Assembly (NCBI GenBank): GCA_001781415.1
Contig: MFLT01000001.1
Coordinates: 51,600 to 115,599, forward strand
Length of the DNA stretch: 64,000 bases
Direction of reading: 5' to 3'
Origin: Candidatus Kaiserbacteria bacterium RIFCSPLOWO2_01_FULL_45_25
Lineage (GTDB): Bacteria; Patescibacteriota; Minisyncoccia; Phycocordibacterales; UBA918
Numbering within the stretch: position 1 is the first letter of the stretch; each line of letters begins with the position of its first letter. Below, piece by piece: positions 6,572-47,148 of this stretch. The translations under genes and the position numbers were made by a program. The notes beneath the pieces are model-generated. The model had not been told where the DNA came from. It saw only the letters and a list, made by a program, of their open reading frames with translations, and searched no databases.

Positions 6572-6705
6572 ATCACCTTAGGTGGTGGTTTTCCGAGTAC
6601 GAGGCAGGCTGCTGCAGCCGACCGCTCCCTTTGGGGTCGCGGCTCGGCTAAGCATCTGCCAAAGCAAAGCATAGTCGACACTTCGTGTCTCTTTGCTTAT
6701 GCTTT
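6572..6705 (+). ncRNA. Candidate structured RNA or cis-regulatory element, copy 1 (homologous to 46443-46610)
   Basis: About 78% identity to the second copy over about 100 nt; compensatory changes in two predicted stems (AGCCGA/TCGGCT vs AGCTGA/TCAGCT; GACAC..GTGTC vs GACGC..GCGTC); inner GC hairpin CCGACCGCTCCCTTTGGGGTCGCGGCTCGG. Confidence 0.45.
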
Positions 6706-7124
6706 ATACTACATATATACTCATGAAATCATCGCTATCCACTTTTGTTACCAAACTTCAGAATAATCCCTGGTATGCCGCTACGATGGTGGTCCTCGCT
6801 TTTGTCGGGGCTGGACTCTTGGGGTATGAGTTCACCGCGTACGCTAGGCCGGAAATTGTCGTGATTACCGTTCGTCTCGACATATTTATCGCTTGTATCT
6901 TCATGACTGATTTCTTCCTTGGGTTATTTTTTAATACTAAGTACACCAAAGCTGACTACTGGAAGAAAAACTGGCTCGACTTCATTTCTTCTATTCCAGT
7001 GACGGCCGACATGGCTCGAGCTCTGCGTATCTTGCGTGCCTTACGTGCGCTGCGCGTTATCTCATCCACGCTTGATGTGTACTTCACACGACGCAGGTAT
7101 TTGAGTATTAAAAGTAAAAAATAA
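6693..7124 (+). CDS. Voltage-sensor-domain-only ion transport family protein (S1-S4, no pore domain); real start possibly the Met at 6723
   Basis: Four TM helices; fourth helix with a regularly spaced Arg ladder RALRILRALRALRVIS (S4-like); stop followed by a terminator, no S5-S6 coding downstream. Confidence 0.5.
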   Translation: MLMLYTTYILMKSSLSTFVTKLQNNPWYAATMVVLAFVGAGLLGYEFTAYARPEIVVITVRLDIFIACIFMTDFFLGLFFNTKYTKADYWKKNWLDFISSIPVTADMARALRILRALRALRVISSTLDVYFTRRRYLSIKSKK

Positions 7125-13185: not shown

Positions 13186-13272
13186 GGAGGGGTGGCAGAG
13201 TGGTTGAACGCGCTACCTTGGAAAGGTAGTATATGCGAAAGCGTATCGGGAGTTCGAATCTCCCTCCCTCCG
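13186..13272 (+). tRNA. tRNA-Ser (anticodon GGA), type II with long variable arm
   Basis: Acceptor GGAGGGG/TCCCTCC, anticodon stem CTACC/GGTAG with loop TTGGAAA (GGA), variable arm TATATGCGAAAGCGTATC, T-arm GGGAGTTCGAATCTCCC. Confidence 0.8.
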
Positions 13273-13470
13273 CAGAGAACGAAGTGAGTAAGAAAAGGGA
13301 TTAATTAATGAAAAAGTAAAAGATTTTTCATGATTGTTGTCTGAATTACAACTTGGACAGCAACATATTTTCAATGTCACGGATAGATTGACAAAACACA
13401 AAGAATGTAGTTTATTAGCGGTAGATTACACTTCTTTTACAACTGAATATCATATCGGAGAAACAAACTC

Positions 13471-14613
13471 ATGGTACTAGACATTTGTGTCGTGGTCCCT
13501 GCGCGGAATGAAGCAGCGGTGATTGAAGCTACTTTGCGTAGTCTCATCGCTGCTGGAATACCGCCAGGGCACATCTATCTGGTGGACGATTGTTCATCAG
13601 ACAACACTGGTGATATCGGGCGAACGCTCGGTGTCATTGTGCTACGAAACGACCCCAACTTGGGCAAGGCTCACGCTATTGCTCGGGCGGTCGGAATGTT
13701 CAAGCTCAATGAGCGCTTTGAACTGATTTCGCTCATGGATGCAGACACAATCGTCAACGAAGATTATTTCGCAGTAATGCGGAAGGCTTTCGACGATTCG
13801 GAGGTAGTTACAGCGTGTGGTCGACATAAAAGTCGTCCCTGTAACTGGATCACTGCCTATCGTGCGTACGGCTACAGCTTCACCCACTTTGTCTACCGTG
13901 GTGCTCAGAGCAAGATGCGTGTCATCAATGTGGCGCCGGGGTGTTCAACAACCTATCGGTCCTCAATTTGGCATAAGCTTGATTGGAACAAAGATACGAT
14001 CGTTGAGGATATGGACGTAACAATCCAGATTCACAAAAACAAGCTCGGCCGTATTGTGTACGTACCTGACGCTATTGTGCACACCCAGGACCCGCAAACA
14101 TTGGCTGACTACGGAAAGCAAATGTTCCGCTGGAATACTGGATCTTGGCAGGTAATCAAAAAACACAAGCTGTTTGGCTTCAAGAGCAAGATTGACTGGG
14201 AGTGCGCATTTCTCTTCGGAGAAGGGTTGCTATTTTCGTCTCTCTACCTCTTGCTGCCGCTCTTGTTGCTATACGACGTGTTTTACGACATGCCGTACAG
14301 TTTTCGCTTCGGCTATATGGCCCTGATTGATGCTGGGTTCTCGTTCGTTATTGCGCTTTTTGTGGCCGCAGCTGAACGTCGGAAGGATATCCTCTTTTCG
14401 GCACCGCTGTTTCCATTGATGCGTGTCTTTGATGCTTGGCTTTTTATTAAAGGATTCTGGAAGGTCATTATTCGCAGACAAGCGGTAACCACTTGGTTTA
14501 CCCCGGCCCGCTACATACAGGAGAAAATTGAATGGAAAAGTGCTTTACTCTCATCGTGGCGTTCGTTACTTTCGTTTTCGGCTTTGCGGCACCTGCTTCG
14601 GCAGAGGTTGTAA
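13471..14613 (+). CDS. Family 2 glycosyltransferase, processive membrane type (PgaC/IcaA/NodC-like poly-N-acetylglucosamine synthase)
   Basis: DDCSSD..., DAD motif, QMFRW (QxxRW) motif, C-terminal TM helices; GC about 50%, above the local background. Confidence 0.75.
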   Translation: MVLDICVVVPARNEAAVIEATLRSLIAAGIPPGHIYLVDDCSSDNTGDIGRTLGVIVLRNDPNLGKAHAIARAVGMFKLNERFELISLMDADTIVNEDYFAVMRKAFDDSEVVTACGRHKSRPCNWITAYRAYGYSFTHFVYRGAQSKMRVINVAPGCSTTYRSSIWHKLDWNKDTIVEDMDVTIQIHKNKLGRIVYVPDAIVHTQDPQTLADYGKQMFRWNTGSWQVIKKHKLFGFKSKIDWECAFLFGEGLLFSSLYLLLPLLLLYDVFYDMPYSFRFGYMALIDAGFSFVIALFVAAAERRKDILFSAPLFPLMRVFDAWLFIKGFWKVIIRRQAVTTWFTPARYIQEKIEWKSALLSSWRSLLSFSALRHLLRQRL

Positions 14614-15287
14614 AGAAGCCGTATGCGGTCGTGACCTTCACCTTCGACGACGCTCCCCGGAGTGTCTATACGCAGGCTTATCCGCTCCTTAAAGCGGTTG
14701 GCCTGCCGGCCACCATCTACCTTTCAACAGGGTTCGTTGAAGTGTATGGTTATATCAAATGGACAGACATCAAAGAGCTCGAAGCTAACGGCTGGGAAAT
14801 TGGTGCGCATACCCATACGCACGCAGACCTGACCAAACTTGCGCCGGGTGACATGGTGACAGAAATAGCGAAATCTCAGCAGCTCTTCAGTGAGCATGGG
14901 TATCGTCCCGTTTCTTTTTCTGCGCCATATGGTGAATATGGTGAGCGCGAGCTCACGGAACTCAAGAGGGTCTACAGCAGCAATCGCGCCGCCTGGGGCA
15001 ATGGTGGCATCAACAACTACCACAACCGTGACGCCTACAACTTGGTGTCTCTCGGGGTAACGCTCGAGACAACACTTGATGAAGTGCAGAAGCAAATAAA
15101 AGCTATCAAAAAAGATGGCGGCTGGCTGATTTTGCAGTTTCATCAAATCGACAATGGGCAAAACGAGCCAATGGCTTTTTCAAAGGAGAGTATCTTTACC
15201 ACGAAAATTTTCCCGGAAATTCTGAAAATTATTTTGAAAGAGGAGGTGCCGGTTCGTACCGTTCGTGACATCATCGAAAACCCGTAA
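14532..15287 (+). CDS. Polysaccharide deacetylase (CE4 / NodB domain; PgaB/IcaB-like), secreted
   Basis: Signal peptide, TFTFDDAP (TFDDG-type) motif, His-rich metal site; overlaps the GT2 gene by 82 nt in another frame. Confidence 0.7.
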   Translation: MEKCFTLIVAFVTFVFGFAAPASAEVVKKPYAVVTFTFDDAPRSVYTQAYPLLKAVGLPATIYLSTGFVEVYGYIKWTDIKELEANGWEIGAHTHTHADLTKLAPGDMVTEIAKSQQLFSEHGYRPVSFSAPYGEYGERELTELKRVYSSNRAAWGNGGINNYHNRDAYNLVSLGVTLETTLDEVQKQIKAIKKDGGWLILQFHQIDNGQNEPMAFSKESIFTTKIFPEILKIILKEEVPVRTVRDIIENP

Positions 15288-15304
15288 ACAGTCAAGGAAT
15301 TCAC

Positions 15305-16036
15305 ATGAAAAAGTTTTTGTCTCTCATGGCCACTTTGCTGGCCTTTGCTTTCTACATGCAACCCGCGTTTGCGGACGGCAGTACCTGGGGTTCGATCGAG
15401 AACTCGCCGGCCGAGGACGACAACGTCATCGGTACGGCCTACGCGGAAAAGAGCTGGCCGGTCTTGCAAAAAGACAAGCTGAAGCTCTCGCCGTTCCTGA
15501 GCGGCATGGTCGTCGTCGATGACAAGGGCTACAACTGGAACAACAAGGCCGTCGCGCGAGCTGGCGGCAAGTTGGACTACCAAGTCGGACCCTTGGGCAC
15601 TCTGACGTTCCGCCTCGGCGCGGCCTACGAACATCAGTTCAAATCTGGTGACTCGTATACCGAACCATTCGCATCGGCCGAGTACTGGTTTGGTTGGGGC
15701 TACGGCACCAGCTTGCCCGGCTCGTCCTGGGGGGTGGTCGGCAATACCTCTCCTTCGGAAAAGGGGAACGTGATTGCCATGGTCCATGCCGAACAGGGGT
15801 TTCTGGCGTTCAATGCAGGCAAAGGAAGGGTCACACCTTTCATTGACTTCACGATCGCCCGGGATACCAAGGACTTCGTCTGGAACAACAAAGAGGTCTA
15901 TGGCCTCGGCGTGAAGTACGTTCATCCCGTCGGCAACGGCGTGGTGAATGTCGGCACCAAGTACCAGCACGAAGAACGTGAGGCGGGCCGCGGAAGCGGC
16001 GCTGTCTTGTTTCTGACCTACTGGTTCCCACTGTAA
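15305..16036 (+). CDS. High-GC (about 60%) secreted protein, Gly/aromatic-rich with C-terminal ...FLTYWFPL; outer-membrane beta-barrel-like
   Basis: Signal peptide ending AFA-DG; strongly GC3-biased codons unlike the rest of the window; C-terminal aromatic residues. Confidence 0.5.
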   Translation: MKKFLSLMATLLAFAFYMQPAFADGSTWGSIENSPAEDDNVIGTAYAEKSWPVLQKDKLKLSPFLSGMVVVDDKGYNWNNKAVARAGGKLDYQVGPLGTLTFRLGAAYEHQFKSGDSYTEPFASAEYWFGWGYGTSLPGSSWGVVGNTSPSEKGNVIAMVHAEQGFLAFNAGKGRVTPFIDFTIARDTKDFVWNNKEVYGLGVKYVHPVGNGVVNVGTKYQHEEREAGRGSGAVLFLTYWFPL

Positions 16037-16055
16037 GAAAAGGAAGGAAGTCATC

Positions 16056-16805
16056 ATGAGCTCAATCATTGGAGGTGCTTGGTCCACCGCCTGTCACCTC
16101 TTCGTCCAATACCCGTTCACTACTGCCTGCGCCGTTGTCCTTGGGGTCGGAACGTATAACGTCCTGACCGATGAACAAAAGGCCGAATGCAACAAGATTG
16201 TCGCGGCCTGCCAAACGGTACCCACTCCGCCACCACCTGTGGTCATTGCGCCTGTTGCCCCTCCGGCACCGGTCGTGGTGGTCCCGGCCAAGCCGGCGGT
16301 GGTTGACCCGTGCGCTGATGCGCCGGTGATGACCACTGCCGACCTGTTCGTTTCGACGGGCAAGCCCTTCCTGTGGAAGAACCCGGGCATCGATCCGGTT
16401 CGTGGCAAGGCTCCTGGGCCCTACCTCGCGCAGTTGAAGTTCACTCCGGCCGAGCAGGCGATTTTCCTCAAGAAGATCGCCGAGCAGGACGGGGAGGTGA
16501 TCAACCTCAAGAAGGGTGATGTCATCGGGCTCATGACCAGCGGGTCGGGCAAGCTGAAGACCAACACCACGGTGGCCTTCGACCCGGTCTTCCGGACGAC
16601 GGGCAGCGGCGACTACAAGAACGACGGCCGGATGCGGATTTACATCCACGAACAGCATGTTCGCCTGAATGGCGACTGCGTGCTGAGGCAGATGGTTCTC
16701 CTCGAACCGTTCGTCTGCCAGAACTGGTCTCGTATCTCCGACATGATTTCGCCCCTGCGGCGCGTACCCGACGCTGTCACTCCGGCGACCAAAGAAGCGA
16801 AGTAA
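16056..16805 (+). CDS. High-GC (about 62%) hypothetical protein with Pro/Val-rich linker
   Basis: N-terminal hydrophobic segment, PPPVVIAPVAPPAPVVVVPAKP linker, foreign codon usage. Confidence 0.45.
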   Translation: MSSIIGGAWSTACHLFVQYPFTTACAVVLGVGTYNVLTDEQKAECNKIVAACQTVPTPPPPVVIAPVAPPAPVVVVPAKPAVVDPCADAPVMTTADLFVSTGKPFLWKNPGIDPVRGKAPGPYLAQLKFTPAEQAIFLKKIAEQDGEVINLKKGDVIGLMTSGSGKLKTNTTVAFDPVFRTTGSGDYKNDGRMRIYIHEQHVRLNGDCVLRQMVLLEPFVCQNWSRISDMISPLRRVPDAVTPATKEAK

Positions 16806-16826
16806 AAGTTCTTTGACCGCCCGCCC

Positions 16827-16858
16827 CCGCCGTGCCTAACAAGCACGGCGGTTTTTTT
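16827..16858 (+). terminator. Strong rho-independent terminator closing the GC-rich segment
   Basis: CCGCCGTGC-ctaacaa-GCACGGCGG plus TTTTTTT. Confidence 0.8.
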
Positions 16859-16908
16859 ATATCTAGAACGATAGAAGATGTAGTATACTAAGCACAATAA
16901 AGCTACAT

Positions 16909-22659: not shown

Positions 22660-23142
22660 TCATCTGTCAGGGTGCTTGACCTGAATGTTGATGTATCGCT
22701 CGTCGGGGTCGACCCGGCAACGACCAACTAAACCAGGTGCAACAGCTTTTTTAATCACGTCAGTCATGTCGACATCTGTGTAGTACATGCGGTTGCCCTT
22801 GAAATAGCTGAGCCTGATGTTGTATGTGGTGAACAACCTCCGGTGGCGTTGGCTATATGCGCGGGTGCACATATCGCCAGTGAACAGAGTCACTTCCCGG
22901 CCACGAGCTTTGTCCTTGAACTCATTGAACCCTAGCCAAGTTACTGAGGGATTGTCAGGATTGATTCTCTGGTCTATGGCTTGTTGCATTTCAGCCGGAT
23001 AACGCACCACAATGTGGAACGGAATCTCGGTCGGGAAGGGAACTCGCACAAACGCAGTCTGCGCTTGGGCCTCAGGCGCATCCGTAAACACGGCAAGGGT
23101 CAGGGCAAAGGCGGCGAAGAGAGAGCGGGCAAAGGTGGTCAT
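22660..23142 (-). CDS. Hypothetical secreted protein (moderately GC-elevated gene)
   Basis: Signal peptide ending AQA-QT; about 50% GC against a 42% background. Confidence 0.4.
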   Translation of the reverse strand: MTTFARSLFAAFALTLAVFTDAPEAQAQTAFVRVPFPTEIPFHIVVRYPAEMQQAIDQRINPDNPSVTWLGFNEFKDKARGREVTLFTGDMCTRAYSQRHRRLFTTYNIRLSYFKGNRMYYTDVDMTDVIKKAVAPGLVGRCRVDPDERYINIQVKHPDR

Positions 23143-24929: not shown

Positions 24930-27900
24930 ATGAATAATTTATACGTACAAAATAGTTCGCTCGCTCGACTTTGGGCAGCCCTTACTATGTTAGCTGTTGT
25001 TTTAAGCGCCTTCAGTGCGCCTTTTTCTGTGTTTGCACAGGAAGTGCCAGAGGTAGTAGATCCAACTCCAATTGTTGACCCAGCACCAACAGATCTTCCT
25101 GATGGAGATGTAGATGGTGACGAAGATGAAGGAGATGGATTGCCGACGACCGGAGAAGAGTCGCTTCGAACGTTTAATATGTCTACGCCAAACGGCGGAC
25201 CAAGTCCAAAGGTGACTATTTGCCATGCTAACGAAAGTAACGAGCAGGCGAACAACCCATTTACGGACAATGATGTTGATGAGGATGGTCTAAATGGTCA
25301 CGGTGACCATGCTGATGATATTATTCCAGTAACTGATGATTTTCCGAATGGTCAAAACCTAACAACAGTTTATGCTGAGTTTGGTGGATTGACTGGTCAG
25401 CAAATTCTTGATGATGAATGTGATACACCAGAAAAGGAAGTAAAAATTTCAATCACCAAGATTATCTGTGAAGATGAGACCTTGCTTCCAAATGACGGCT
25501 ATACTGAAATTACAGCCGCTACTGCCGCTAATTTCTTGGCTGAAAATCCATCTTGTTATGAAGGTGAAGGTTTTGAGTTTCAATGGGCCAAGGGTGGAGT
25601 AAATACCACTGAAGATAACAGTGGTGAACTTGGTTCACCGTGGACAACCACAGACGAAACAGACAGTAATGGTAACGTAGTCATAACTCTATCTGAAAAG
25701 GATGTCAAAAATCAAAGTAAAATTTCAGTGCGAGAAGTTTGGAGCGCAGACTACATTCCATTTACTGGAAAGAACGGCAGTAATGTTTCAGCTGAACTAT
25801 ACTGTGCCAATGATGCAGCTAATTTCGATAACTTGGAATGGGTTGGTCAGAACGGAACTCTAGCACTTGATGAGACCTATCACTGTGTAGCCTGGAATGT
25901 TCCTGTACTTGAGGAGATTGAAATGTGTAAATTTAATGCACTAGAAGCTCCAATTGCCGGCTGGGAGATGACACTAACTAATGGAGACCAGTCATACACT
26001 CTTGAAACTGGAGAAAACGGTTGTGTATCAAAGATGGTTAATCCAAATATTGGTCCATGGACAACAAGTGAAGAGATGCAAAAAGATTGGGAACAAGTTG
26101 ATGTTTCTGTTCAAAACGGTTTTATTGATACAGAAGATGAAGTAACAGAGTACTGTGTATTCTTTGATGGTGAAGTAAAGCTTCCTATCACTAACTTCGT
26201 AGAAATTCCTGATACAGATAAGAGTTGTACATTCACTAATGAATATGTTGAACCTTGTGAAGATAAGCTTGATGGGGATTGGGCTAATAGTGTAGTGACG
26301 TCTGATCAGGGACTAAAGAAGAACGGTGCAGCTATAACTGACCCAAACCGCACTGATGATGAAAAGGTGCTAGGAGTAGAGGATTGGGTAGTTAACGGTT
26401 CAACTGGTTTCTTTTCTCTTGGATTTGGAGGTTCTGTCACTGTAGAGTTTGATAACTTTGTGCCAAATGTGCTTGGTAACGACATTGCTGTGTATGAAGC
26501 AACAAACGGCACCTATCCAGCTGAAACAGCAAAGGTAGAGGTTAGTCAGAACGGTACAGATTGGGAAGAGGTTGGTACGGCAAGTAATCTAAATGTAGAT
26601 CGAATTTCAAACTTTGATTTTGATTCAACTGGATTGGCTTGGATTAAGTTTGTTCGTGTCACTGACACTTCAAACCCAGCTCTCCATGTTAATGATGCTG
26701 ACGGATTTGATGTAGACGCAATTTCTGCCACGGAGTCACTTTGTGATGAACCAGAAGGACCAAAGTTTTCTGATGTGACTATGTGTAAGATTGATGGAAA
26801 TCAAAATGCACTTTCAGGTTGGAATCTCATGCTCCTCGGAGCCGAGGTAGATACTGTTAGTGTTTCAGCTACTAATGGTGCTGGTACAGACGTAGCTTTA
26901 GCTGCTGGGCCATACGTAGCCATTGCTTCAGGTACTTGGGAAAACCACCGTACTCCGCTTAACACTGTTGATGCGGAATACTCAACTGAAGACAATTGGG
27001 CTACTAACATGGACGGATTTACTGGTTATGGAACTGAAATTCTAGAACTAAAAGTCGGTGGAGCCTTTGGAGATTGGGGTGTTTACAATAGTTTGCATCG
27101 CTACGCTCGCGCTTTCGCTCAAGTAGCGGACGGAGTTACAAACTTTGCCGTTTCTGACAGTTATTATGGCGATAACACTGGCTCACTAAACGTGGCTGTG
27201 TATGAAGGCTACGCTGGTCTAACTGGTGCAAATGGCTGCGTAGTATTTGAAGATGTACCATTTGGCACTTATAACGTCGATGAAATCATGCAAGACGGTT
27301 GGCTTAATGCTTCGGGCCTTGGTGAGGTAACAGTTGATTCTGAAACAGAAAGTTTCACTGTTATTAATCGACCTGTAGATACTCCAGCTGAGGAAGTCGC
27401 TACCGTAGTGGCACACAAGATTGTGTGTACCGACGAAGCTGAGTTGCCAAACTGGGGTGCTGCAAACCTTAATAACATCTCTTCTTCAACAGCAGCTGAT
27501 TGGGTAGCCACTCACGACTCTTGCGAATTTGAAGCTGGTTGGGAATTTGAATGGGCCCCACAAGGCACTTCAAATCCAGACAACAACCTACCAACTAGTG
27601 GCCTTTATGGTGCGGCTGGTGGAAGCTGGACAACCTTTGGTCCAACAGACGTAAATGGAAAGACTCAAGTTTCTCTCTCTGCTGCGCAAATTGCTGGTAT
27701 GAGTAACATTTGGATGCGTGAAGTGCTTAAGGATGGATATATTCCTTTCACTTATGGTCCAGGTAATCTAACTAACGAAGACGACTACTCTGCCGAAATC
27801 TACTGTCATACTGACGCGTTGAATTATGACAACTACGACCGCGTAGACGGTATTGCGGTAGATAATACTTACTACTGTGTGGCGTGGAATCACGCTGAAG

Positions 27901-29087
27901 TACCAGCACCGGTTTGTGAAGCTGAGGTGGACTTGCTTACAAACGGTTCATTTGAAGATCCAGTAGTTACCAATAGTGGATTGTGGCAAAAATTCCCTAG
28001 TGTGACTGGTTGGTTGATTCAAAAAGTGGCAGATTTAACCGCCACTACACTTGAAATTCATAAAGGCTGGAGCGGTAATCAAGCCGCTGCTGGACTGCAG
28101 TATGTGGAGCTAGATGGTGACCATAGTACACAAGTTAGTCAGACTGTAGCAGTAATTCCTGGCGAAACCTATGACTTATCATGGGCTTTTGCTCCACGAC
28201 AAAACATCGCTGCTGAACAAAATCAGCTTGGAGTTTATGTTGATGGTGTACAAGTGGAGTCAGATGGACCAAGCTCAATTGGTACCGCTCTAACTATTGC
28301 TGATTGGCAAAATGGTACTGTGAGTTTTGTAGCCACAACCAGTTCAGTAACTATCTCTATGGTTGATGCTGGGCCAAGTAATTCATTTGGTACTTTCCTT
28401 GATGATGTATCGCTTAAGTGTAATCCAGATGGTGGAGATGATGAGGGTGATGGAGACGGTGATAATGACGAAGATGATACTTATCGTCTAGAGGGATATA
28501 TCTGGAATGACGACGATAGAAACACTCTGTGGGGTGAAGGTGAGCTTTCACTCGCTGGTTGGACTGTAACAGCCACCAAGGGTGCAACTACCTACTCAAC
28601 AACTACTGATGAGTCTGGCTACTACTACTTTGATGTACCAGCTGGTACCTGGACTATTTCTCAAGAAGTTCAAACTGATTGGGAACAAACCACGACTCCT
28701 GAATCATATGAGGTAATTGTGCCATCTCTAGTAACTCAAAGTTTGGTAGAACGAGTATTGGCGTACATTATCCCAGTAGCACACGCTGCAGTTGTAGAAA
28801 TAATCGATGACCTAGACTTTGGTAATGATTTTATTGGTACTACACCAAATCCTACTTCAAACGGTGGTGGCGGTGGCGGAGGTGGACGACTAGTTCGATC
28901 TACTCCAACCGTAGCTGGAGATTCAATCTCTACACCAACACCAATGCCGCTAGTATTGGGTGAGCAGGTATCAGTAGTGCCTTATGGTGCTCCTGGTACA
29001 GGACATGGTGGAACTTCTTCATCTATGAACGTTCTATCATTATTACAAATCCTTTTTACTAACCGAAAGACAGAACTCGTTAAGTAA
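24930..29087 (+). CDS. Large (1385 aa) secreted multidomain surface protein with candidate C-terminal sorting signal
   Basis: Signal peptide, acidic region, repeated prealbumin/Cna-B-like modules (GWEMTL../GWTVTATKG..YYFDVPAGTWTISQ), poly-Gly, then hydrophobic stretch plus a Lys/Arg-containing tail NRKTELVK. Confidence 0.6.
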   Translation: MNNLYVQNSSLARLWAALTMLAVVLSAFSAPFSVFAQEVPEVVDPTPIVDPAPTDLPDGDVDGDEDEGDGLPTTGEESLRTFNMSTPNGGPSPKVTICHANESNEQANNPFTDNDVDEDGLNGHGDHADDIIPVTDDFPNGQNLTTVYAEFGGLTGQQILDDECDTPEKEVKISITKIICEDETLLPNDGYTEITAATAANFLAENPSCYEGEGFEFQWAKGGVNTTEDNSGELGSPWTTTDETDSNGNVVITLSEKDVKNQSKISVREVWSADYIPFTGKNGSNVSAELYCANDAANFDNLEWVGQNGTLALDETYHCVAWNVPVLEEIEMCKFNALEAPIAGWEMTLTNGDQSYTLETGENGCVSKMVNPNIGPWTTSEEMQKDWEQVDVSVQNGFIDTEDEVTEYCVFFDGEVKLPITNFVEIPDTDKSCTFTNEYVEPCEDKLDGDWANSVVTSDQGLKKNGAAITDPNRTDDEKVLGVEDWVVNGSTGFFSLGFGGSVTVEFDNFVPNVLGNDIAVYEATNGTYPAETAKVEVSQNGTDWEEVGTASNLNVDRISNFDFDSTGLAWIKFVRVTDTSNPALHVNDADGFDVDAISATESLCDEPEGPKFSDVTMCKIDGNQNALSGWNLMLLGAEVDTVSVSATNGAGTDVALAAGPYVAIASGTWENHRTPLNTVDAEYSTEDNWATNMDGFTGYGTEILELKVGGAFGDWGVYNSLHRYARAFAQVADGVTNFAVSDSYYGDNTGSLNVAVYEGYAGLTGANGCVVFEDVPFGTYNVDEIMQDGWLNASGLGEVTVDSETESFTVINRPVDTPAEEVATVVAHKIVCTDEAELPNWGAANLNNISSSTAADWVATHDSCEFEAGWEFEWAPQGTSNPDNNLPTSGLYGAAGGSWTTFGPTDVNGKTQVSLSAAQIAGMSNIWMREVLKDGYIPFTYGPGNLTNEDDYSAEIYCHTDALNYDNYDRVDGIAVDNTYYCVAWNHAEVPAPVCEAEVDLLTNGSFEDPVVTNSGLWQKFPSVTGWLIQKVADLTATTLEIHKGWSGNQAAAGLQYVELDGDHSTQVSQTVAVIPGETYDLSWAFAPRQNIAAEQNQLGVYVDGVQVESDGPSSIGTALTIADWQNGTVSFVATTSSVTISMVDAGPSNSFGTFLDDVSLKCNPDGGDDEGDGDGDNDEDDTYRLEGYIWNDDDRNTLWGEGELSLAGWTVTATKGATTYSTTTDESGYYYFDVPAGTWTISQEVQTDWEQTTTPESYEVIVPSLVTQSLVERVLAYIIPVAHAAVVEIIDDLDFGNDFIGTTPNPTSNGGGGGGGGRLVRSTPTVAGDSISTPTPMPLVLGEQVSVVPYGAPGTGHGGTSSSMNVLSLLQILFTNRKTELVK

Positions 29088-29103
29088 TTAGTGAAAGTAC
29101 AAC

Positions 29104-29134
29104 AAAAGCCCGTTGCCGCAGGCAACGGGCTTTT
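29104..29134 (+). terminator. Rho-independent terminator
   Basis: GCCCGTTGCC-gca-GGCAACGGGC plus TTTT. Confidence 0.75.
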
Positions 29135-29177
29135 GTCTTGCTAAATGAATTAAATAAGCCTACTATTAAAACGTTAT

Positions 29178-29819
29178 ATGGACACTAAGGCAAAAACTGA
29201 CGTAATAGTAAAGGCAGTCACCTCGCGGCGAGGCAGGGCCCTACTATTTGGTGTTATCGTCGGCTCCCTAATTGGCCTATATCTATTTACTACCGATAAT
29301 CAGCCAACTGCAGAGTTGGTGGTTGAGGAGGCAGCAGCGCCACAAGAAGCGTATGCTTTGGCTCCATCAGAACCAACTAGGTTGCGGATTCCTAAGCTAG
29401 ATATTGATACTACTTTTGTGCCGCCGCTAGGTTTACTACCAAACGGTGAAGTGGCCGTGCCTGATTCTGATACAGAAGTAGGTTGGTATAAACACAGCCC
29501 AACTCCTGGCGCTCTTGGACCGGCGGTTATTTTGGGACATATAGATTCATATACTGGTCCAGCCGTGTTTTTCTATCTAGGCCAACTTGAACCTGGTGAC
29601 GATGTGTTTGTAGATCGTGCTGACGGCAGCACCGCTCACTTCAAGGTAGAGTCACTGGAACGACCACGTCAGTCTGAGTTTCCAACGGAGCGAGTGTATG
29701 GAAATATTGATCATGCTGGCTTACGACTCATTACTTGTTCGGGTATTTATGTAAAGGGTAATCAACGCTACACCCACAATTTGGTAGTGTACGCACGTTT
29801 GGTAAGTGAGGGTGGTTAA
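29178..29819 (+). CDS. Sortase family transpeptidase (class E/F-like), membrane anchored
   Basis: N-terminal TM, catalytic His (VILGHID), TLxTC-type Cys (LRLITC), conserved Arg. Confidence 0.75.
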   Translation: MDTKAKTDVIVKAVTSRRGRALLFGVIVGSLIGLYLFTTDNQPTAELVVEEAAAPQEAYALAPSEPTRLRIPKLDIDTTFVPPLGLLPNGEVAVPDSDTEVGWYKHSPTPGALGPAVILGHIDSYTGPAVFFYLGQLEPGDDVFVDRADGSTAHFKVESLERPRQSEFPTERVYGNIDHAGLRLITCSGIYVKGNQRYTHNLVVYARLVSEGG

Positions 29820-29842
29820 TTTGTTGCTATAATACACACATT

Positions 29843-31024
29843 ATGAATTGGCGTAGATTATTCCTTCCAAGTGCCGAAAACGACTATACACCGCACCTGC
29901 TTCAGCGGGCGGCGGTGGTTATGATGGCGGTATTAGTACTGCTGTCTTTTGTTGCTACAAATCTACAGGCACTCTTGTGGCAGTCTTCTGATTGGTTGGT
30001 TGGAACTATTCTGCCAGCTGTAGTGGTGGATTTAACCAATGAAGAGCGAGCCGATGAGGCAGCTGTACCCTTGGTACGAAATTCACTGCTAGATGAGGCT
30101 GCCCGTCTTAAGGCTGAGCATATGGCCAAGAACAGCTACTTTGCACACCATAGTCCAGACGGCGTATCACCATGGTATTGGTTTGAACGGGTGGGCTACA
30201 CTTATGCTCATGCTGGTGAAAATCTAGCTATTCATTTTACTGATTCCAGTGCAGTAGTAGAGGCTTGGATGCAGTCTCCGACCCATCGAGCTAATATTGT
30301 AAATAATAACTACACTGAGATTGGTGTCGGTACAGCTAAAGGAACGTATGATGGCTTTTCAACCGTGTTTGTGGTTCAGCTCTTTGGTACACCAGCCGCG
30401 CCAGTAGTGGCCCCTGCACCCGCACCGGCCGTAACTCCAGCTCCAGTGGCGGTAGTGGCGCCAACACCAGTGCCAGCACCGCTCACTACAGAAGAAGTGG
30501 AGGAAACTCCAGCCGTAGAGCTGGTCCGAGCTCCTGAACCGGCCTTTGCTGCCGATACTCCAGTAGAAGTGCTGGGTAGTACTGAAGATGTAACTGAAGT
30601 TGAGGCTGCTCCAGCCCCAGCGGCTGAGGAGTCAGTAGTGCCAGAACAAATAGAGGTAGCTGAAGTGGTTACAGATGCTTCACAAACTTCAATCTTTTCA
30701 ACACACTTTGCGACCAGTTCTGGATTGGAACCAGTCAGTATTGGAAGTGTGAGCGGCACCACCGCAGATAATTTTTCATTTGTTGAAGTAGCAGCTACCC
30801 AACCAAGTACTATTTTGCAGGCGGTGTACTTAGGTATTGGAATGTTAGTAGCGACTCTCCTGCTCCTCTCAATAATTATTGGTATTAATCACACGAGACC
30901 ACTGCAGGTGGTTTATGGTGTGGGACTTATGTTGCTCATGAGTGGATTGTTTTATCTACATGTAACCCTCACTACTAGTGTAGTGATTGCTGCTACTCCG
31001 GACGTTGTTGAATTAGTCCCATAA
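29843..31024 (+). CDS. CAP/SCP/PR1-like domain protein with Pro/Ala/Val-rich linker and C-terminal TM segments
   Basis: YFAHHSPDG ... HAGENLA ... WMQSPTHRANI CAP signature; PAxPV repeats. Confidence 0.6.
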   Translation: MNWRRLFLPSAENDYTPHLLQRAAVVMMAVLVLLSFVATNLQALLWQSSDWLVGTILPAVVVDLTNEERADEAAVPLVRNSLLDEAARLKAEHMAKNSYFAHHSPDGVSPWYWFERVGYTYAHAGENLAIHFTDSSAVVEAWMQSPTHRANIVNNNYTEIGVGTAKGTYDGFSTVFVVQLFGTPAAPVVAPAPAPAVTPAPVAVVAPTPVPAPLTTEEVEETPAVELVRAPEPAFAADTPVEVLGSTEDVTEVEAAPAPAAEESVVPEQIEVAEVVTDASQTSIFSTHFATSSGLEPVSIGSVSGTTADNFSFVEVAATQPSTILQAVYLGIGMLVATLLLLSIIIGINHTRPLQVVYGVGLMLLMSGLFYLHVTLTTSVVIAATPDVVELVP

Positions 31025-31532: not shown

Positions 31533-32726
31533 ATGGTTCAAAAAATAACAAAATTCAGTCAAAGACTGGCGCTAGCAGCGCTTATTGCTGTTTTGGTAGT
31601 GCCAAGTCCGGTCACTGCTGCAACTGTGGATGTAGCAGGATGGATTCCGTGGTGGCAGGCAGAGGAAGGTATAGAGAGCGCTACCAAGAATATCGATAAA
31701 TTAGATACGGTCTATCCATTTGTCTATGAGGTGGATGAGGACGGAGATATTGAGTCAAAGACCAGCCTCACTACTCGTACCTGGAGAAACTTCTTTAAAC
31801 TGGCTGATAAGGAAGATGTAGAGATTATCCCAACCATTGCTTGGTTTGATGGAGAGCAAATTCATGAAATCCTGAGTGATAGACGTGACAGAACTGCACA
31901 CATTAATGATATTTATGACCTTGTCCAAAAAGGTAAGTACGATGGAATTAATATCGACTACGAGCAGAAGTTAGCTGAAACCAATAAATACTTTTCGCTA
32001 TTCCTTAAAGAATTAAACAAGAAACTAGGTCGCAAGCTGTTGACCTGTGCTATTGAGGCTCGGACTCCAGCAGAATCACGCTTCAAACAAGTACCAGCTG
32101 TACTTGAGTTTGCCAATGATTATGAAGAAATCGAGAAGTACTGTGACCGGATAGAAATCATGACCTACGACCAACAACGGGCGGACTTGAAATTAAACGA
32201 AGAGCGAACGGGAGTGCCATACATGCCGGTCGCTGATAAAGACTGGGTAGAAAAGGTGATTGACTTAGCGCTTGAGGATTTTTCTAGCGATAAGGTATAT
32301 CTTGGGGTTCCGACCTACGGCCGAGCTTGGGATGTAAAGGTGTCACCGAACTGGTACCGTGACTATGTGCTAGCAGGTACTCTCAACGTGCCACGTCTAC
32401 GTGAATTAACTAAAGAATATAAAGTAACAGAAGGACGCTCAGCTGGTGGTGAAGCAGTGTTTAGTTACTTCCCAACCACCTCTCCTTTTGCGCTTTTGGC
32501 TTCTCTCCCAACTCCTCCGGGAACAGCCAAGGGCTATGAGAATGCTGCCAAAGCGCTTCTATTCGCCAATATGACTGGTATGGAAGTGCCGGTAAGGTTT
32601 GCTACCTACTCAGACTCTGAGGCGATTGAAGATAAGGTTAAGTTGGCGGAAAAGCACAACTTGGCCGGCATCGCCATCTTTAAGATTGATGGGGAGGAGG
32701 ATCAGGATGTCTGGAAACTGTTTTAG
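31533..32726 (+). CDS. Secreted glycoside hydrolase family 18-like protein
   Basis: Signal peptide; YDGINIDYE (DxxDxDxE GH18 catalytic motif). Confidence 0.6.
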
Positions 32727-36061: not shown

Positions 36062-39000
36062 GTGTTATCATATTTTGTATATTCATTAATTTTCCGCACC
36101 ATGTCTCACACGTTTCATGTAAAAGTTTTAATACAGGTCGTTTTTGTTTTACTTGCCTTTGTAAGTTTTCTTTTTATCAATACTAAGGATGTTTTTGCTT
36201 CTGCAACATCTACACCACGTCTGGAGCAACTCGTTAAAGATACTCAAAATACCCTATATACTGGGCAGAGACAACATCTCTCATGCGATGACCTGAGTGG
36301 ACACATTGAGTCAGTGACTATTTCTATGGCTAATATCTATCCGAATACAGACGGACAATATCGGATGAGTGTTCTTGGAGGTGTTGGTCCTACCCGCATA
36401 AGTGAAAACATAGTTGTTTTGGATGGAGATGACTATAGCGTTCAGCGAGACGTGACATTCACTTTCAATCCGGCCATTGATGTTGACACTGATCTGTGTG
36501 CCAATGGTGGGACAGTGAGGTTTGAACTCGTGAATTTGAGCCTATCAGGGGCAATTGTTTTTGGCTCGGCTGCAGACACATACCCAGGCGGTTTTTTCTC
36601 AAAGGGTTCAATCACACCAAAAATTGCCGATATGTATTTCATTATTAACGGAAATGCAGAGGTGAATCATCTACCTGTTCTGAATGAAGTTGGAGACAAG
36701 GCTGCTACTGAAGGATCGTTACTAACTTTCAGTTTGAGCGCGACGGATCAAGATCAGTTTGCAAAGCCAACATACAGTGTCACTGGACTTCCAGAGCACG
36801 CAGTCTTTATTGGTGATACCTTTTATTGGGTGCCTGGATTTGATCAGGCTGGCAGTTATTCAATTGAACTAAAAGCAACGGACGCTGGAAATGCTGGTAT
36901 GCCATCTGAATTTGACACAGAGACCATATCTATAATTGTTTCTGAAGCAACACCAGAACTTAATAATCTAAGCCAACTCGTTAAAGATACTCAAAGTCTC
37001 TTATACACTAACCTAAGACAATCTCTCTCGTGCGATGACTTGAGTGGACATATTGAGTCGTTGACTATTTCTATGGCTAATAACTCTACGGTAACGGATG
37101 GACGATATCAAATGCAAGTTTCTGGAGGTATTGGTCCTATTTATGTTAGTGAAAACATAGTTGTTTTGGATACAGATGAGTATAACGTTCAGCAAGATGT
37201 GACGTTTACTTTCAATCCGGCGATTGATGTTGATACAGATTTGTGTGCTGGTGCTGGGACAGTGAGGTTTGGTCTCGTGACTTTAGACACATCAGGGGCA
37301 ATTGTTTTTGGCTCGGCAGCAGACACATACCTGGGTGGCATTGTCTCGCAGAGTGTACAGACACGAAAAATTGCCGATATGTATTTCATTATTAACGGAA
37401 ATGCAGAAGTGAATCATTCTCCTGTTTTGGATGAAGTTGGAGACAAGGCTACTACTGAAGGGTCTTTGTTAACTTTAAAGTTGAGCGCGACGGATCAAGA
37501 TCAGTATGCCAAACCAACATACGGTGTTACCGGACTTCCAGAACATGCAGTCTTCATCGATGATACCTTTTATTGGGTGCCTGGATTTGATCAGGCTGGC
37601 AGTTATTCAATTGAACTAAAAGCAACGGACGCTGGAAACGCTGGCATACCGCCTGAATCTGACACGGAGACTATATCCATCACTGTCTCTGAAGCAACAC
37701 CAGAACTAAATAGTCTCAGCCAACTCGTTAAAGATACTAAAACTATCCTATACCCTGGGCAAAGACAATCTCTCTCATGCGATGACCTGAGTGGACATAT
37801 TGAGTCGTTGACTGTTTCTATGGTTAATATCTCTCCGAATACGGACGGACAATATCAGATGAATGTTCTTGGTGGTATTAGTCCTACCTATATTAGTGAA
37901 AACATAGCCGTTTTGGATGCAGATGACTATAACGTTCAGCAAGATGTGACGTTTACTTTCAATCCGGCTATTGATGTTGATACAGATCTTTGCGCCAATG
38001 GTGGGACAGTGAGGTTTTCTCTCGTGAATTTAAGCACAGCAAGTGCAAGTGTTTTTGGCTCGGCGGCAGACACATACCCGGGGGGTATTGTCTCACAGAG
38101 TGTATATCCACTACCAAAAATTGCCGATATGTATTTCATTATTAACGGAAATGCAGTTAGTAACAGTGCCCCTACCTTAACTACTATTGGAAATCAAATA
38201 GGAACAGAAGGAGAAACTCTTCAGTTTACTGTGGTTGGTAACGACATCGATGGTGATGCGCTAACTTATAGTGCTTCTGGAACTCCAACAGGAGCGACGT
38301 TCGATGCAAATACTGGTTTGTTCTCTTGGACTCCCGGATATTCAGATGCTGGAATATATGATGTAACATTTACTGTAACTGAAGATACACCCGAAATGCT
38401 TTCTGCTTCTGAGACTGTTTCTATTGAAGTCCTCAATACAAACCGTGCACCAGTCCTTGAACCAATTGGCAATCAATCAACTGCCGAAAACCAAAACCTC
38501 TCATTCACTATCTCAGCAACCGACCCCGATGGAGACAGTCTCACATACTCCGCAGCAAACCTTCCGTCAGGAGCAACCTTTGACGCACAGACACAGACAT
38601 TTAGCTGGACACCAGGATTCAACGATGCAGGGAACTATAGCGACATTGAATTCACTGTCATAGACAGTGGTAGTCCAATGGAGTTGGATATTGAGCTTAT
38701 TACTATCACAGTGGGCAATGTGAACCGCGCTCCAGTTATCGACAATCCAGGACCGCAAGAAGTCTTGGAAACAGAGACATTGTCATTTAGTGTTTCAGCA
38801 GTTGATCCAGATGGCGATGCTGTTACATATAGCGCAAGTAACACACCGGCAGGAAGTACATTTAGTCCTGCAACTGGAGTATTTTCTTGGACACCTAGTC
38901 TCTCAGATGAGGGTGTCTACATGGTGACTTTTATTGCCAGTGATGACGGGTCACCACAGGAATCAGCAGAACTTACAGTAGTTATCACTGTTGGTGATAA

Positions 39001-39265
39001 CCCAACACCAACTGAACAGGCAGAAGATTTAGTTGAAGATATTGTTGTCTTTGCTTTTCCGGCAAACGTAGAAAACTCTTATTTGGCAAATCTTCATAAG
39101 GTTGAGCAATTTATTCTTGATGGAAAAATTAATGCTGCCTTAAATCAATTAGATGCCTTTGTTAATAAGCTTAATCAAGACTACAATCAGGGTGTTATCA
39201 CTCAACAAGAGTATGATAGTCTTCTTGGTGCAGCCAATAACTTAATCGCAGATTTGCAGAATTAA
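36062..39265 (+). CDS. Large surface protein: three about 249-aa tandem repeats followed by He_PIG/cadherin-like Ig domains and a C-terminal coiled segment
   Basis: N-terminal TM; repeated xPxLExIGNQ..E.Q.LSF.ISA.DPDGD.LTYSA..LP.GATFD...FSWTPG modules. Confidence 0.65.
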   Translation: MLSYFVYSLIFRTMSHTFHVKVLIQVVFVLLAFVSFLFINTKDVFASATSTPRLEQLVKDTQNTLYTGQRQHLSCDDLSGHIESVTISMANIYPNTDGQYRMSVLGGVGPTRISENIVVLDGDDYSVQRDVTFTFNPAIDVDTDLCANGGTVRFELVNLSLSGAIVFGSAADTYPGGFFSKGSITPKIADMYFIINGNAEVNHLPVLNEVGDKAATEGSLLTFSLSATDQDQFAKPTYSVTGLPEHAVFIGDTFYWVPGFDQAGSYSIELKATDAGNAGMPSEFDTETISIIVSEATPELNNLSQLVKDTQSLLYTNLRQSLSCDDLSGHIESLTISMANNSTVTDGRYQMQVSGGIGPIYVSENIVVLDTDEYNVQQDVTFTFNPAIDVDTDLCAGAGTVRFGLVTLDTSGAIVFGSAADTYLGGIVSQSVQTRKIADMYFIINGNAEVNHSPVLDEVGDKATTEGSLLTLKLSATDQDQYAKPTYGVTGLPEHAVFIDDTFYWVPGFDQAGSYSIELKATDAGNAGIPPESDTETISITVSEATPELNSLSQLVKDTKTILYPGQRQSLSCDDLSGHIESLTVSMVNISPNTDGQYQMNVLGGISPTYISENIAVLDADDYNVQQDVTFTFNPAIDVDTDLCANGGTVRFSLVNLSTASASVFGSAADTYPGGIVSQSVYPLPKIADMYFIINGNAVSNSAPTLTTIGNQIGTEGETLQFTVVGNDIDGDALTYSASGTPTGATFDANTGLFSWTPGYSDAGIYDVTFTVTEDTPEMLSASETVSIEVLNTNRAPVLEPIGNQSTAENQNLSFTISATDPDGDSLTYSAANLPSGATFDAQTQTFSWTPGFNDAGNYSDIEFTVIDSGSPMELDIELITITVGNVNRAPVIDNPGPQEVLETETLSFSVSAVDPDGDAVTYSASNTPAGSTFSPATGVFSWTPSLSDEGVYMVTFIASDDGSPQESAELTVVITVGDNPTPTEQAEDLVEDIVVFAFPANVENSYLANLHKVEQFILDGKINAALNQLDAFVNKLNQDYNQGVITQQEYDSLLGAANNLIADLQN
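36200..38150 (+). repeat. Three tandem about 747-bp near-identical coding repeats inside the 36062-39265 gene
   Basis: Repeat starts at about 36200, 36955 and 37690 share long identical stretches (…CAACTCGTTAAAGATACTCAAA…TCATGCGATGACCTGAGTGGACA…); the reverse-strand artefact ORFs MKYISAIFG recur at a 747-750 bp period. Confidence 0.8.
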
Positions 39266-39303
39266 GAGAAGGAAAAACTCCCGAAATGATCTGACCACAA
39301 CCA

Positions 39304-39334
39304 AACCCTCTCAAGACTGGGTCTTGAGAGGGTT
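39304..39334 (+). terminator. Rho-independent terminator, followed by TTTAAATGGA motif copy C (39342-39361)
   Basis: AACCCTCTCAAGA-ctgg-GTCTTGAGAGGGTT then TGGTTGTGTTT. Confidence 0.7.
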
Positions 39335-39399
39335 TGGTTGTGTTTATAAAATTTAAATGGACGGTTGGCGGGTGGTAATATAAGCTGTATATCTCACTT

Positions 39400-40497: not shown

Positions 40498-40543
40498 AGC
40501 ATATCCACAAACCTCTGAACCCATCTCATATAGAAAAGATGCT

Positions 40544-40584
40544 TCATGTTTTCGTTCGGTCGCGCCTCGTATCTGTGGGTTTGT
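40544..40584. repeat. 41-bp conserved motif, copy 2 (see 9337-9377), upstream of extended -10 TGATATAAT at about 40597-40605
   Basis: TCATGTTTTCGTTCGGTCGCGCCTCGTATCTGTGGGTTTGT. Confidence 0.5.
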
Positions 40585-40615
40585 GAATGCGCTCTTAGTG
40601 ATATAATTATCATAA

Positions 40616-41818: not shown

Positions 41819-41864
41819 TAGCTTATTCTGACGGAACGGTACGATATACTTAGTCTATAAAGTT

Positions 41865-42677: not shown

Positions 42678-42702
42678 TCTAATTCTGGTATAGTGTCTGG
42701 CC

Positions 42703-44472: not shown

Positions 44473-44526
44473 TTGTGCACGAGCCTTGGTTTAGGGCACT
44501 GCTTCACAAGGTATACTATATAAGTA

Positions 44527-46437: not shown

Positions 46438-46442
46438 GAATA

Positions 46443-46610: not shown

Positions 46611-46663
46611 TTGTGTGGGTAACATACACAAATGTAAATTAAACAATACTATAATGTAGTGGT

Positions 46664-47134: not shown

Positions 47135-47148
47135 GTTCTTCAAGTACC

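Follow-up and report, generated by a model that had tools for sequence, protein, structure and literature searches.

Organisation of the locus

The window analysed here is a 64,000-nucleotide stretch of contig MFLT01000001.1 (positions 51,600 to 115,599; GenBank assembly GCA_001781415.1) from Candidatus Kaiserbacteria bacterium RIFCSPLOWO2_01_FULL_45_25, a member of the candidate phyla radiation (CPR). Within it lies a GC-rich block that, judged from its sequence, is a self-contained four-gene operon on the forward strand, extending from 13384 to 16861, and that may serve the synthesis and export of a polysaccharide. The four open reading frames (ORFs) encode a processive membrane synthase of glycosyltransferase family 2 (GT2; 13471-14613, 380 aa), a secreted NodB-type polysaccharide deacetylase of carbohydrate esterase family 4 (CE4; 14532-15287, 251 aa), a protein with a signal peptide and a predicted 12-stranded beta-barrel (ORF3; 15305-16036), and a protein in which an N-terminal domain with the motif HLFVQYP is joined by a Pro-rich linker to an alpha/beta C-terminal domain (ORF4; 16056-16805).

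The first gene is preceded by a putative operon promoter and leader (13384-13470, forward strand), with TTGACA at 13388-13393 and a ribosome-binding site (GGAG) ahead of the ATG at 13471. Alignment shows that the TTGACA and the leader are kept across the three genomic contexts described below (A, B and C), and the leader is 95% identical between the window and its closest relative, L009 (related loci are given L numbers). A promoter consensus scan additionally flags 13425-13453, and Rfam contains no riboswitch or other element matching the leader. The block closes with an intrinsic terminator (16827-16861, forward strand; CCGCCGTGCC-loop-GCACGGCGG followed by seven T residues), the hairpin of which (16827-16851) has a 9-bp stem with eight GC pairs ahead of the T-run and is kept in L009, L001, L004 and L008. 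An earlier reading of these letters (the original prediction) had described a GC-rich insertion beside a tRNA gene that ends at a strong terminator, and the four genes do form one block up to this hairpin and T-run, which is the 3' edge of the shared cassette.

The tRNA-Ser(GGA) gene (13186-13273, forward strand) lies directly 5' of the block, as had been proposed, and is the sole tRNA gene of the window (ARAGORN; 50.9 bits with Rfam). It is an upstream neighbour outside the cassette and also precedes the cassette in L006. The junction between tRNA and cassette (13274-13383) is the variable side of the locus: homology to L009 begins only at 13344, and the DNA common to the window and the context-B loci runs only from 13384 to 16861/16862, ending right past the T-run. 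Because this shared segment runs from promoter to terminator, the mobile unit would be one complete transcription unit.

Composition and authenticity of the tract

Measured in 1-kb steps, the mean GC content of the window is 45.0% with a standard deviation (SD) of 2.7%, and the maximum, 59.5% at 15501-16500, lies about 5.3 SD above that mean. GC content and GC content at third codon positions (GC3) are 49.2% and 0.56 in the GT2 gene, 49.6% and 0.57 in the CE4 gene, 57.5% and 0.754 in ORF3 (z 5.3), and 60.8% and 0.764 in ORF4 (z 5.4), against about 45% and 0.41 ± 0.066 for the 35 other window ORFs. The GC step and the atypical composition of the last two genes, both claimed at first sight, are therefore real on sliding-window GC and GC3, but the background is 45% and not 42%, and the deacetylase gene 50% and not 55%. 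The G+C bias of the GC-rich genes spans all synonymous classes; at four-fold degenerate sites A makes up 0.06-0.08 (background 0.30) and C 0.38-0.57 (background 0.18). Translational selection was tried as the cause of the high GC3 and rejected, since GroEL, GroES and BipA have background-like codon usage.

The abrupt change in composition is the only point in favour of an assembly artefact, in which 15.3-16.8 kb would stem from a GC-rich organism through contamination or a chimeric join. This was a concern of the original prediction, and a join proves to be unlikely: independent ENA, JGI, Logan and NCBI assemblies from many samples show the identical gene order and the GC step again, and the exact ORF3 and ORF4 proteins (which match hypothetical proteins A2929_01915 and A2929_01920 at 100% identity) are found on 8-9 contigs from several sources, up to 962,580 bp in length. 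The reading frames are uninterrupted, the GC climb starts already in the GT2 and CE4 genes, and the edge falls on the conserved terminator. The artefact is effectively refuted, and we give it next to no credence. A second compositional outlier lies at 22660-23142 on the reverse strand, where an ORF of 160 aa has a GC3 of 0.615 (z 3.1), no Pfam match and 23% identity to its positional counterpart in L006; it may be either a compositional outlier or a hypervariable gene.

The synthase and the deacetylase

The synthase carries the series that marks processive, membrane-embedded GT2 enzymes (a GT-A domain with D, DxD, (T/V)ED and QxxRW motifs, then transmembrane (TM) helices): DDCS at residues 39-42, DAD at 90-92, VED at 178-180 and, as originally noticed, a QxxRW motif, present as QMFRW at 217-221, followed by C-terminal hydrophobic segments at 245-302. 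Its Pfam matches include Glyco_tranf_2_3 (87 bits), Glycos_transf_2 (73 bits) and Chitin_synth_2 (30 bits), with PF13641, PF00535, PF13632 and PF03142 all above cut-off, and BcsA matches it around QxxRW. The protein has 380 aa in the window and 344-348 aa in all relatives; it is longer by 35 codons (14514-14613) because the usual stop after ...YIQEKIE has been lost, and the extension overlaps the CE4 start by 82 nt.

The CE4 protein has a signal peptide and matches PF01522 at 89 bits (cut-off 23), in keeping with the deacetylase first proposed. The Asp-His-His metal-binding motifs are present as TFDD (37-40) and HTHTH (93-97, of the form H[ST]xxH), with SAPYG (130-134) as motif 3; the chitin/xylan deacetylase-like structure 7y51 in the Protein Data Bank (PDB) is matched with an E-value of 8e-14, and the best NCBIfam match, HfsH, reaches 65 bits where the cut-off is 400. 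A CE4 gene lies within the operon only in the Kaiserbacteria-type cassette.

The pairing of synthase and deacetylase is thus supported, but the identity attached to it, that of a Pga/Ica-like system for poly-N-acetylglucosamine (PNAG), is not. The window GT2 scores 80.3 bits against the PgaC/IcaA equivalog TIGR03937 (cut-off 422), matching in the GT2 domain only, and the CE4 protein scores 32 bits against PgaB (TIGR03938; cut-off 322) and 32.5 against IcaB (TIGR03933; cut-off 248). Given the CE4 partner and the similarity of chitin-synthase, NodC and PgaC type, we suggest that the product is probably a polymer of the N-acetyl-hexosamine type, chitin- or PNAG-like. A GH18 chitinase-like gene (31533-32726, forward strand) lies 15 kb from the operon and may bear on the turnover of a polymer of N-acetylglucosamine.

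ORF3 and ORF4

ORF3 has a signal peptide with cleavage between AFA and D, and it ends in ...YWFPL; both features had been picked out before. Outer-membrane barrels close their C-terminal beta-signal with an aromatic residue; the last residue of the window protein is Leu, and relatives end in ...YWFGW, ...YWLGW or ...FWAPF. Structure modelling confidently predicts a 12-stranded barrel built of two six-strand repeats. The motif GSxWG...SPxE..NVI...WNNK occurs twice, and one half of the protein scores 151 against the other (29 ± 5 for shuffles), indicating tandem duplication of a six-strand unit. The fold neighbours are listed with values of 13.1 for PcoB, 11.7 for the TamA barrel, 11.6 each for the BrkA beta-domain and GalP, 10.6 for NanC, 10.5 for Tsx, 10.1 for KdgM, 9.6 for BcsC, 8.8 for PgaA and 8.6 for PelB. 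ORF3 has no Pfam match to any outer-membrane protein (OMP) family. The model has the marks of such proteins, a signal peptide with a closed antiparallel barrel of even strand number, and the parity of residues along the strands suggests the alternation of lipid-facing hydrophobic and lumen-facing polar side chains. With strand parity fixed on diderm sequences, outward positions exceed inward ones in mean hydropathy by 1.96 in Kaiserbacteria, by 1.92 in diderms and by 1.86 in the remaining low-GC CPR-like loci. Since the contrast matches that of the diderm homologs, the lipid-facing belt has not decayed in CPR. ORF3 and ORF4 are under purifying selection: dN/dS is 0.08-0.11 between L004 and L008 and between L006 and L019, both of them close pairs. 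The suspicion that an outer-membrane-like barrel sits in a sortase-bearing, monoderm-like genome has therefore been upheld, as far as a predicted barrel and a sortase gene (29178-29819) go. Pfam and gene scans of the 64-kb window found no gene for outer-membrane biogenesis.

ORF4 begins with a moderately hydrophobic domain (residues ~7-36) that contains HLFVQYP, the local form of an invariant H-L-x-x-x-Y-P. This domain is followed by a helix that contains Cys, a linker rich in Pro (56-85) and an alpha/beta C-terminal domain with conserved cysteines. The structure model is poor, with a predicted local distance difference test score (pLDDT) of 61. A TonB-like, envelope-spanning identity (anchor, Pro-rich spacer and TonB_C domain) was considered for ORF4 and rejected.

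A synthase-barrel module in other lineages

A profile search with ORF3 homologs returned 252 representatives among 1.84 billion proteins. These fall into size classes: two-repeat proteins of ~250-290 aa, single-repeat proteins of ~130-150 aa, and fusions of ~470-550 aa, where the barrel follows a TM segment, a LysM domain and a Pro/Gln-rich linker (e.g. PJE50517.1 of Candidatus Yanofskybacteria). L024 (8001-9497), P0036, P0037, P0039 and P0044 illustrate two of these variants: the fusions of Yanofskybacteria and others, which combine a TM segment, a coiled coil, LysM and a 100-aa Pro/Gln-rich linker, and the single-repeat proteins, which would be half-barrels and may dimerise.

A scan covered 69 metagenome loci, of which ~58 have a complete barrel ORF; in most of these ~58 a homologous GT2 gene lies immediately 5' of the barrel gene and in the same orientation. 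The pair is also found in Paceibacterota (L011-L013), in Yanofskybacteria (L024) and in the diderm L022, whose GT2 is 40% identical to that of the window; in the gammaproteobacterial metagenome-assembled genome L014 the pairing is divergent. The gene after the barrel starts with G-x-S-[ST]-x-x-H-L-x-x-x-[YH]-P in L010, L011-13, L024, L021-23 and several soil clades, and the Yanofskybacteria partner matches a diderm partner with an E-value of 7e-11. Bootstrapped neighbour-joining (NJ) trees of GT2 and barrel agree in their supported sub-clades; the two genes are therefore inherited together. The two downstream proteins are thus conserved partners of GT2 across CPR and diderm lineages, and not the separate foreign cargo they had first been taken for. 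On soil contigs of 54-67% GC, barrel GC3 is close to flank GC3 (0.6-0.85), i.e. the composition is native there. The flanks of these contigs encode TonB_C proteins, an OMP resembling TonB-dependent receptors, CarboxypepD_reg proteins and TPR regulators, and the soil carriers are, by their neighbouring genes, probably free-living diderms. In one diderm clade (L066, 8840-9988) a TonB_C-domain protein of 382 aa stands directly 3' of the barrel and replaces the HLxxxYP partner. We found no description of the barrel family, of the trio, or of outer-membrane-type barrels or porins in CPR in the open-access literature searched.

A different role for the barrel is suggested by some of these features. 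It might be a pore or adhesin that is tethered to the cell and placed in another membrane, such as the outer membrane of a host, for attachment or nutrient uptake, with the GT2 product acting as glue or tether. The hydrophobic belt and purifying selection are kept in a lineage with no known outer membrane; the TM-LysM-linker fusion of Yanofskybacteria would place the barrel beyond the wall, and ORF4 has an analogous architecture of anchor and Pro-rich linker. The top fold neighbours also include solute and oligosaccharide channels (PcoB, GalP, NanC, KdgM and Tsx). However, the strict adjacency to GT2 in the free-living diderms points to a role bound up with the polymer, there is no evidence of insertion into a host membrane, and we know of no mechanism that inserts such barrels without BAM. 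We consider this role distinctly unlikely.

Genomic contexts and the tRNA site

Gene order was compared across loci obtained by exact-protein look-ups of homologs, and the order GT2-CE4-ORF3-ORF4 is common to at least three neighbourhoods. In context A (window, L006, L009, L015 and L019) the order is LemA, a 127-aa gene, M48, tRNA-Ser, cassette, three small genes, GIY-YIG and BipA. Context B is represented by L001-L005 and L008, and L017 resembles it; here the cassette comes after SecDF, an AAA gene, an amino-acid kinase and IspA and is followed by four further GC-rich envelope genes. In context C (L007/L010) the cassette follows DprA. The four genes in the same order are also carried by the 370-kb contig L028. 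The additional genes of context B (L001 11571-14792, L004 5943-9029, L008 10972-14060 and L017 5135-7313; GC3 0.59-0.70) encode a Gly/Ser/Thr-rich secreted protein, a Cys-/Pro-rich secreted protein, a lipobox lipoprotein and a coiled-coil protein that has a TM segment at its C-terminus. Pfam gave no match above its curated cut-offs for any of them, and only weak sub-threshold matches for the coiled-coil gene.

In L006 (NCBI GCA_013565675.1) 17 genes are syntenic with the window, and the cassette lies directly 3' of that genome's own tRNA-Ser(GGA). Most flanking proteins are 53-92% identical between the two (two are at 23% and 41%), the cassette proteins are 61-69% identical, and identity at four-fold third positions is ~0.2-0.5, near saturation. 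Given the synteny, the shared tRNA and the near-saturated synonymous sites, the simplest reading is that the cassette already stood at the tRNA-Ser site in the common ancestor of the window and L006.

These comparisons bear on the idea, central to the original prediction, of a classical tRNA-targeted island: a GC-rich element inserted at tRNA-Ser by an integrase, with integrase and att sites since lost. Such an event would explain atypical composition directly 3' of a tRNA, and it would be in line with an upstream junction that differs among relatives, where M48 and the tRNA precede the promoter in the window, an added DUF3137 gene and the tRNA in L006, GC-rich secreted ORFs in L009 and a 30%-GC zeta toxin in L015. 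Also in its favour, the GT2-barrel pair stands 3' of tRNA-His (L011) or tRNA-Ala (L012, and near it in L013) in unrelated genomes. Against it, no integrase was found in the 64-kb window or in the gene tables and Pfam matches of the related cassette loci examined, and the tRNA 3' end occurs once in the window at up to three mismatches, so the original prediction was right that neither integrase nor repeat is visible. The only att-type boundary repeat is a 15-nt, 87% match at 13314/16800, which is at chance level. L006 shares the tRNA site at near-saturated divergence, with cassette identity within the range of the flanks; the same cassette occupies sites without an adjacent tRNA in contexts B and C; and the shared segment is bounded by promoter and terminator and not by att-like repeats. 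A comparison of relatives for presence or absence, proposed as a check, turned up the cassette at tRNA-Ser in L006 and no empty site. The reading of the window genome as a tRNA island is therefore largely wrong, and the history it invokes is very improbable.

Several observations concern the promoter-side junction and tRNA adjacency. The zeta-toxin gene of L015 (292-1107, 30% GC) lies 5' of the cassette, and this junction gathers variable genes. In L009 the region 1-2550 carries GC-rich reverse-strand ORFs 5' of the cassette, whose products are a lipoprotein-like protein of 371 aa and two secreted proteins, one of 217 aa with Q-x-G-x-x-N-type repeats and one of 154 aa; a curlin/CsgA/CsgG reading of these rested on likeness by eye and was dropped, there being no Pfam match. 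The GT2-barrel pair is directly 3' of tRNA-Leu/His in L011 (4272-4451) and of tRNA-Ala in L012 (5108-5181), and in L013 a tRNA-Ala (6673-6746) lies ~2 kb upstream of the pair with another ORF between. This adjacency echoes the window, and an integrase is not visible in L011, L012 or L013.

Recombination and probable GC decay in the GC-rich genes

In all the Kaiserbacteria-type carriers that were examined, the GC3 of ORF3 and ORF4 homologs lies at 0.62-0.79, with flanks at 0.24-0.53, and other CPR copies are at host-low GC3 (0.42 in L011, 0.30 in L012 and 0.32 in L024). Synonymous changes in the GC-rich genes were polarised in context B (ingroup L001 with L003/L004, outgroup L008). This gave 51 changes from GC to AT and 32 from AT to GC, where the rates of the neighbouring genes predict ~55:28, and the implied equilibrium GC3 in this context is 0.54, compared with 0.65 at present. 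Per-site synonymous change is 0.08-0.095 in the GC-rich genes and 0.20 in adjacent housekeeping genes of the same genomes, i.e. about half, which argues that the GC-rich genes are the younger residents. These figures point to a composition that is probably foreign and still decaying rather than maintained.

Recombination at the locus is demonstrable. Between L001 and L004/L008, dS is 0.83-1.5 over GT2, CE4 and ORF3 and 0.06-0.44 in ORF4 and genes e1-e4. The window GT2 joins L001/L017 with 100% support, and the window barrel groups with L004/L009 in the NJ tree at a support below 60%. In its flanks the window is nearest to L009, where d1-d3 show 85-97% identity; for the cassette proteins the figure is only ~72-74%.

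An alternative is that the genes are long-term vertical residents in which codon- or mRNA-level selection, or GC-biased gene conversion (gBGC) at a recombination hotspot, actively keeps GC3 high, so that the high value would be no trace of foreign origin. The high GC3 of all Kaiserbacteria-type alleles (0.62-0.79), at 50-70% amino-acid identity and in hosts of 44-52% GC, would be expected on these terms; so would its retention by the syntenic pair of window and L006 at near-saturation, and the locus is recombinogenic. On the other hand, the net loss of GC (51 against 32) fits the ordinary bias of the host, the highly expressed GroEL, BipA and GroES lack the bias, and the module has a native low GC3 in other CPR (L011-13 and L024). 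The known effects of gBGC in bacteria are also much below a 30-point shift in GC3. We regard long vertical residence as unlikely, and favour foreign genes that recombine and lose GC slowly.

Other features of the window

Around the sortase gene lies a surface-anchoring cluster of monoderm style (24930-31024), with a 1385-aa SpaA/SdrD_B/DUF642 protein, the sortase and a CAP-domain protein. An adhesin-like run (36062-48705) encodes large He_PIG/Big_9/cadherin-like proteins (1067 aa), and the succession of a dockerin protein (44527-46437) and a cohesin protein (47149-48705) resembles a cellulosome-like pairing in a CPR genome. A giant ORF of >5,000 aa, presumably a giant CPR surface protein, starts near 48771 on the forward strand and exits the window at 64000; because of it, no ORF of at least 150 aa is listed between 48.7 and 59.9 kb.

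Comparison with known systems

The operon shares its logic with PgaABCD and the other synthase-dependent systems (Bcs, Alg and Pel), in which a GT2 with QxxRW is combined with a deacetylase outside the cytoplasm, a barrel on the outer side and a small subunit in the membrane. The operon differs in its parts. Known synthase-dependent exporters have larger barrels of 16-18 strands with TPR scaffolds, whereas ORF3 has 12 strands in a duplicated 2x6 arrangement, has no TPR domain and is not a PgaA-type porin; ORF4 is unrelated to PgaD by the searches run, and the host, a CPR bacterium, is considered monoderm. By fold, ORF3 comes closest to small 12-stranded channels (PcoB and KdgM/NanC/GalP); its sequence identity to these and to autotransporter beta-domains is 4-10%. 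ORF3 does not belong to the KdgM/NanC porin family by profile, and it is set apart from 12-stranded outer-membrane channels by its tandem repeats and its WNNK and SPxE..NVI motifs.

The cryptic yaiS-yaiP-yaiX-yaiO cluster of E. coli K-12 has an analogous content in one orientation: a PIG-L deacetylase, a GT2 with C-terminal TM segments, an acyltransferase and a 257-aa outer-membrane barrel. YaiP is 23% identical to the window GT2, and the yai deacetylase, being PIG-L, belongs to another superfamily than CE4. Homology of ORF3 to YaiO was rejected (hhalign probability 0.7%; no PF19413 match for ORF3 or its diderm homologs), leaving YaiO as an architectural analogue only. NodBC offers a further likeness, since the window GT2 is weakly similar to NodC and Chitin_synth_2 and stands beside a CE4 of NodB homology, but scores are far below the NodC and NodB cut-offs (42.7 against 550 and 34.9 against 240), and Nod systems have neither the barrel nor the partner to which the window GT2 is coupled. 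NodB is cytoplasmic, and the window CE4, having a signal peptide, presumably acts outside the cytoplasm. With tRNA-linked islands the locus has in common an atypical composition beside a tRNA and a variable junction; it differs in having no integrase or att repeat, in a site conserved in a distant syntenic relative, and in its use of non-tRNA sites too.

A proposed model

We propose that the locus is a polysaccharide synthesis and export operon, derived from diderms and shuffled by recombination. In this model the processive membrane GT2 would polymerise and translocate a sugar polymer, the secreted CE4 would partly de-N-acetylate it, the ORF3 barrel would act as outer conduit or anchor, and ORF4, membrane-associated and with its Pro-rich spacer, would link the synthase side to the barrel. 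The trio of GT2, barrel and HLxxxYP partner may be an ancient module native to GC-rich diderm soil bacteria that reached CPR lineages by horizontal transfer, the Kaiserbacteria version having gained a CE4 gene and a longer ORF4. It would then have spread among lineages both as a whole transcription unit and piecemeal by recombination, and the GC-richness of ORF3 and ORF4 would mark a foreign, repeatedly re-seeded and slowly decaying origin, not a recent integrase scar. Taken in full, this statement seems to us probable, if not strongly so; its structural and comparative parts are the more secure, and the identity of the polymer, the export role and the donor the less secure.

A number of observations weigh against it. 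One concerns the envelope: Patescibacteria are described as monoderm, without an outer membrane (PMC11665869, PMC12102498). The sortase gene lies 13 kb from the operon, and in a monoderm phylum with a sortase nearby an outer-membrane conduit would have no known membrane to sit in. The identity of the polymer is deduced from sequence; GT2 and CE4 fall far under every equivalog cut-off, and in SAPYG of the CE4 protein a Ser replaces the usual Arg. Neither the ORF4 model nor its C-terminal domain has a structural match, and ORF4 aligns to the diderm partner over ~29 N-terminal residues at an hhalign probability of 50%; with so weak a profile match, the link between the two rests on the motif and on conserved gene position. 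The label 'diderm' for the soil contigs is drawn from neighbouring genes and not from taxonomy. The nearest native GC-rich carriers are only ~30-45% identical and the deep NJ nodes do not resolve, so that the donor and the direction of transfer are putative. Lastly, the amelioration test is confined to alleles of context-B genomes, and the window and L006 both hold a GC3 of 0.63-0.76 despite near-saturated synonymous divergence. Because both stay GC3-high, a single acquisition followed by amelioration is insufficient, and the persistence calls for either repeated replacement of the alleles from an unsampled GC-rich pool or a selective or gBGC force that slows decay.

Implications

This locus offers a clean example from nature in which to set amelioration against re-seeding, its genes standing 20-35 GC3 points above their hosts across diverged alleles while other CPR copies are fully ameliorated. 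The three-component module is unannotated and common in soil diderms, its barrel has no Pfam family, and it would add a compact type to the known exopolysaccharide systems.

A bolder proposition, which we hold only tentatively and think rather less likely than our model of the operon, is that members of three or more CPR lineages (Kaiserbacteria, Yanofskybacteria and further Paceibacterota) keep a lipid-embedded barrel of outer-membrane type under purifying selection, coupled to a polysaccharide synthase, and that the trio is a new and widespread secretion class in soil diderms. If the first part is true, either an outer lipid layer or patch has gone unnoticed in these ultra-small, supposedly monoderm bacteria, or the barrel is inserted, on a tether that is Pro-rich or contains LysM, in the outer membrane of their host as part of the episymbiotic interface. 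As a separate matter, the class formed in soil diderms by GT2, the duplicated 12-stranded barrel and the HLxxxYP partner would be a synthase-dependent one. The presence of the module in several CPR lineages, with purifying selection acting on it and its lipid-facing belt preserved, conflicts with the view that these organisms have no outer membrane, and it offers a testable handle on the CPR envelope or on the interface between symbiont and host.

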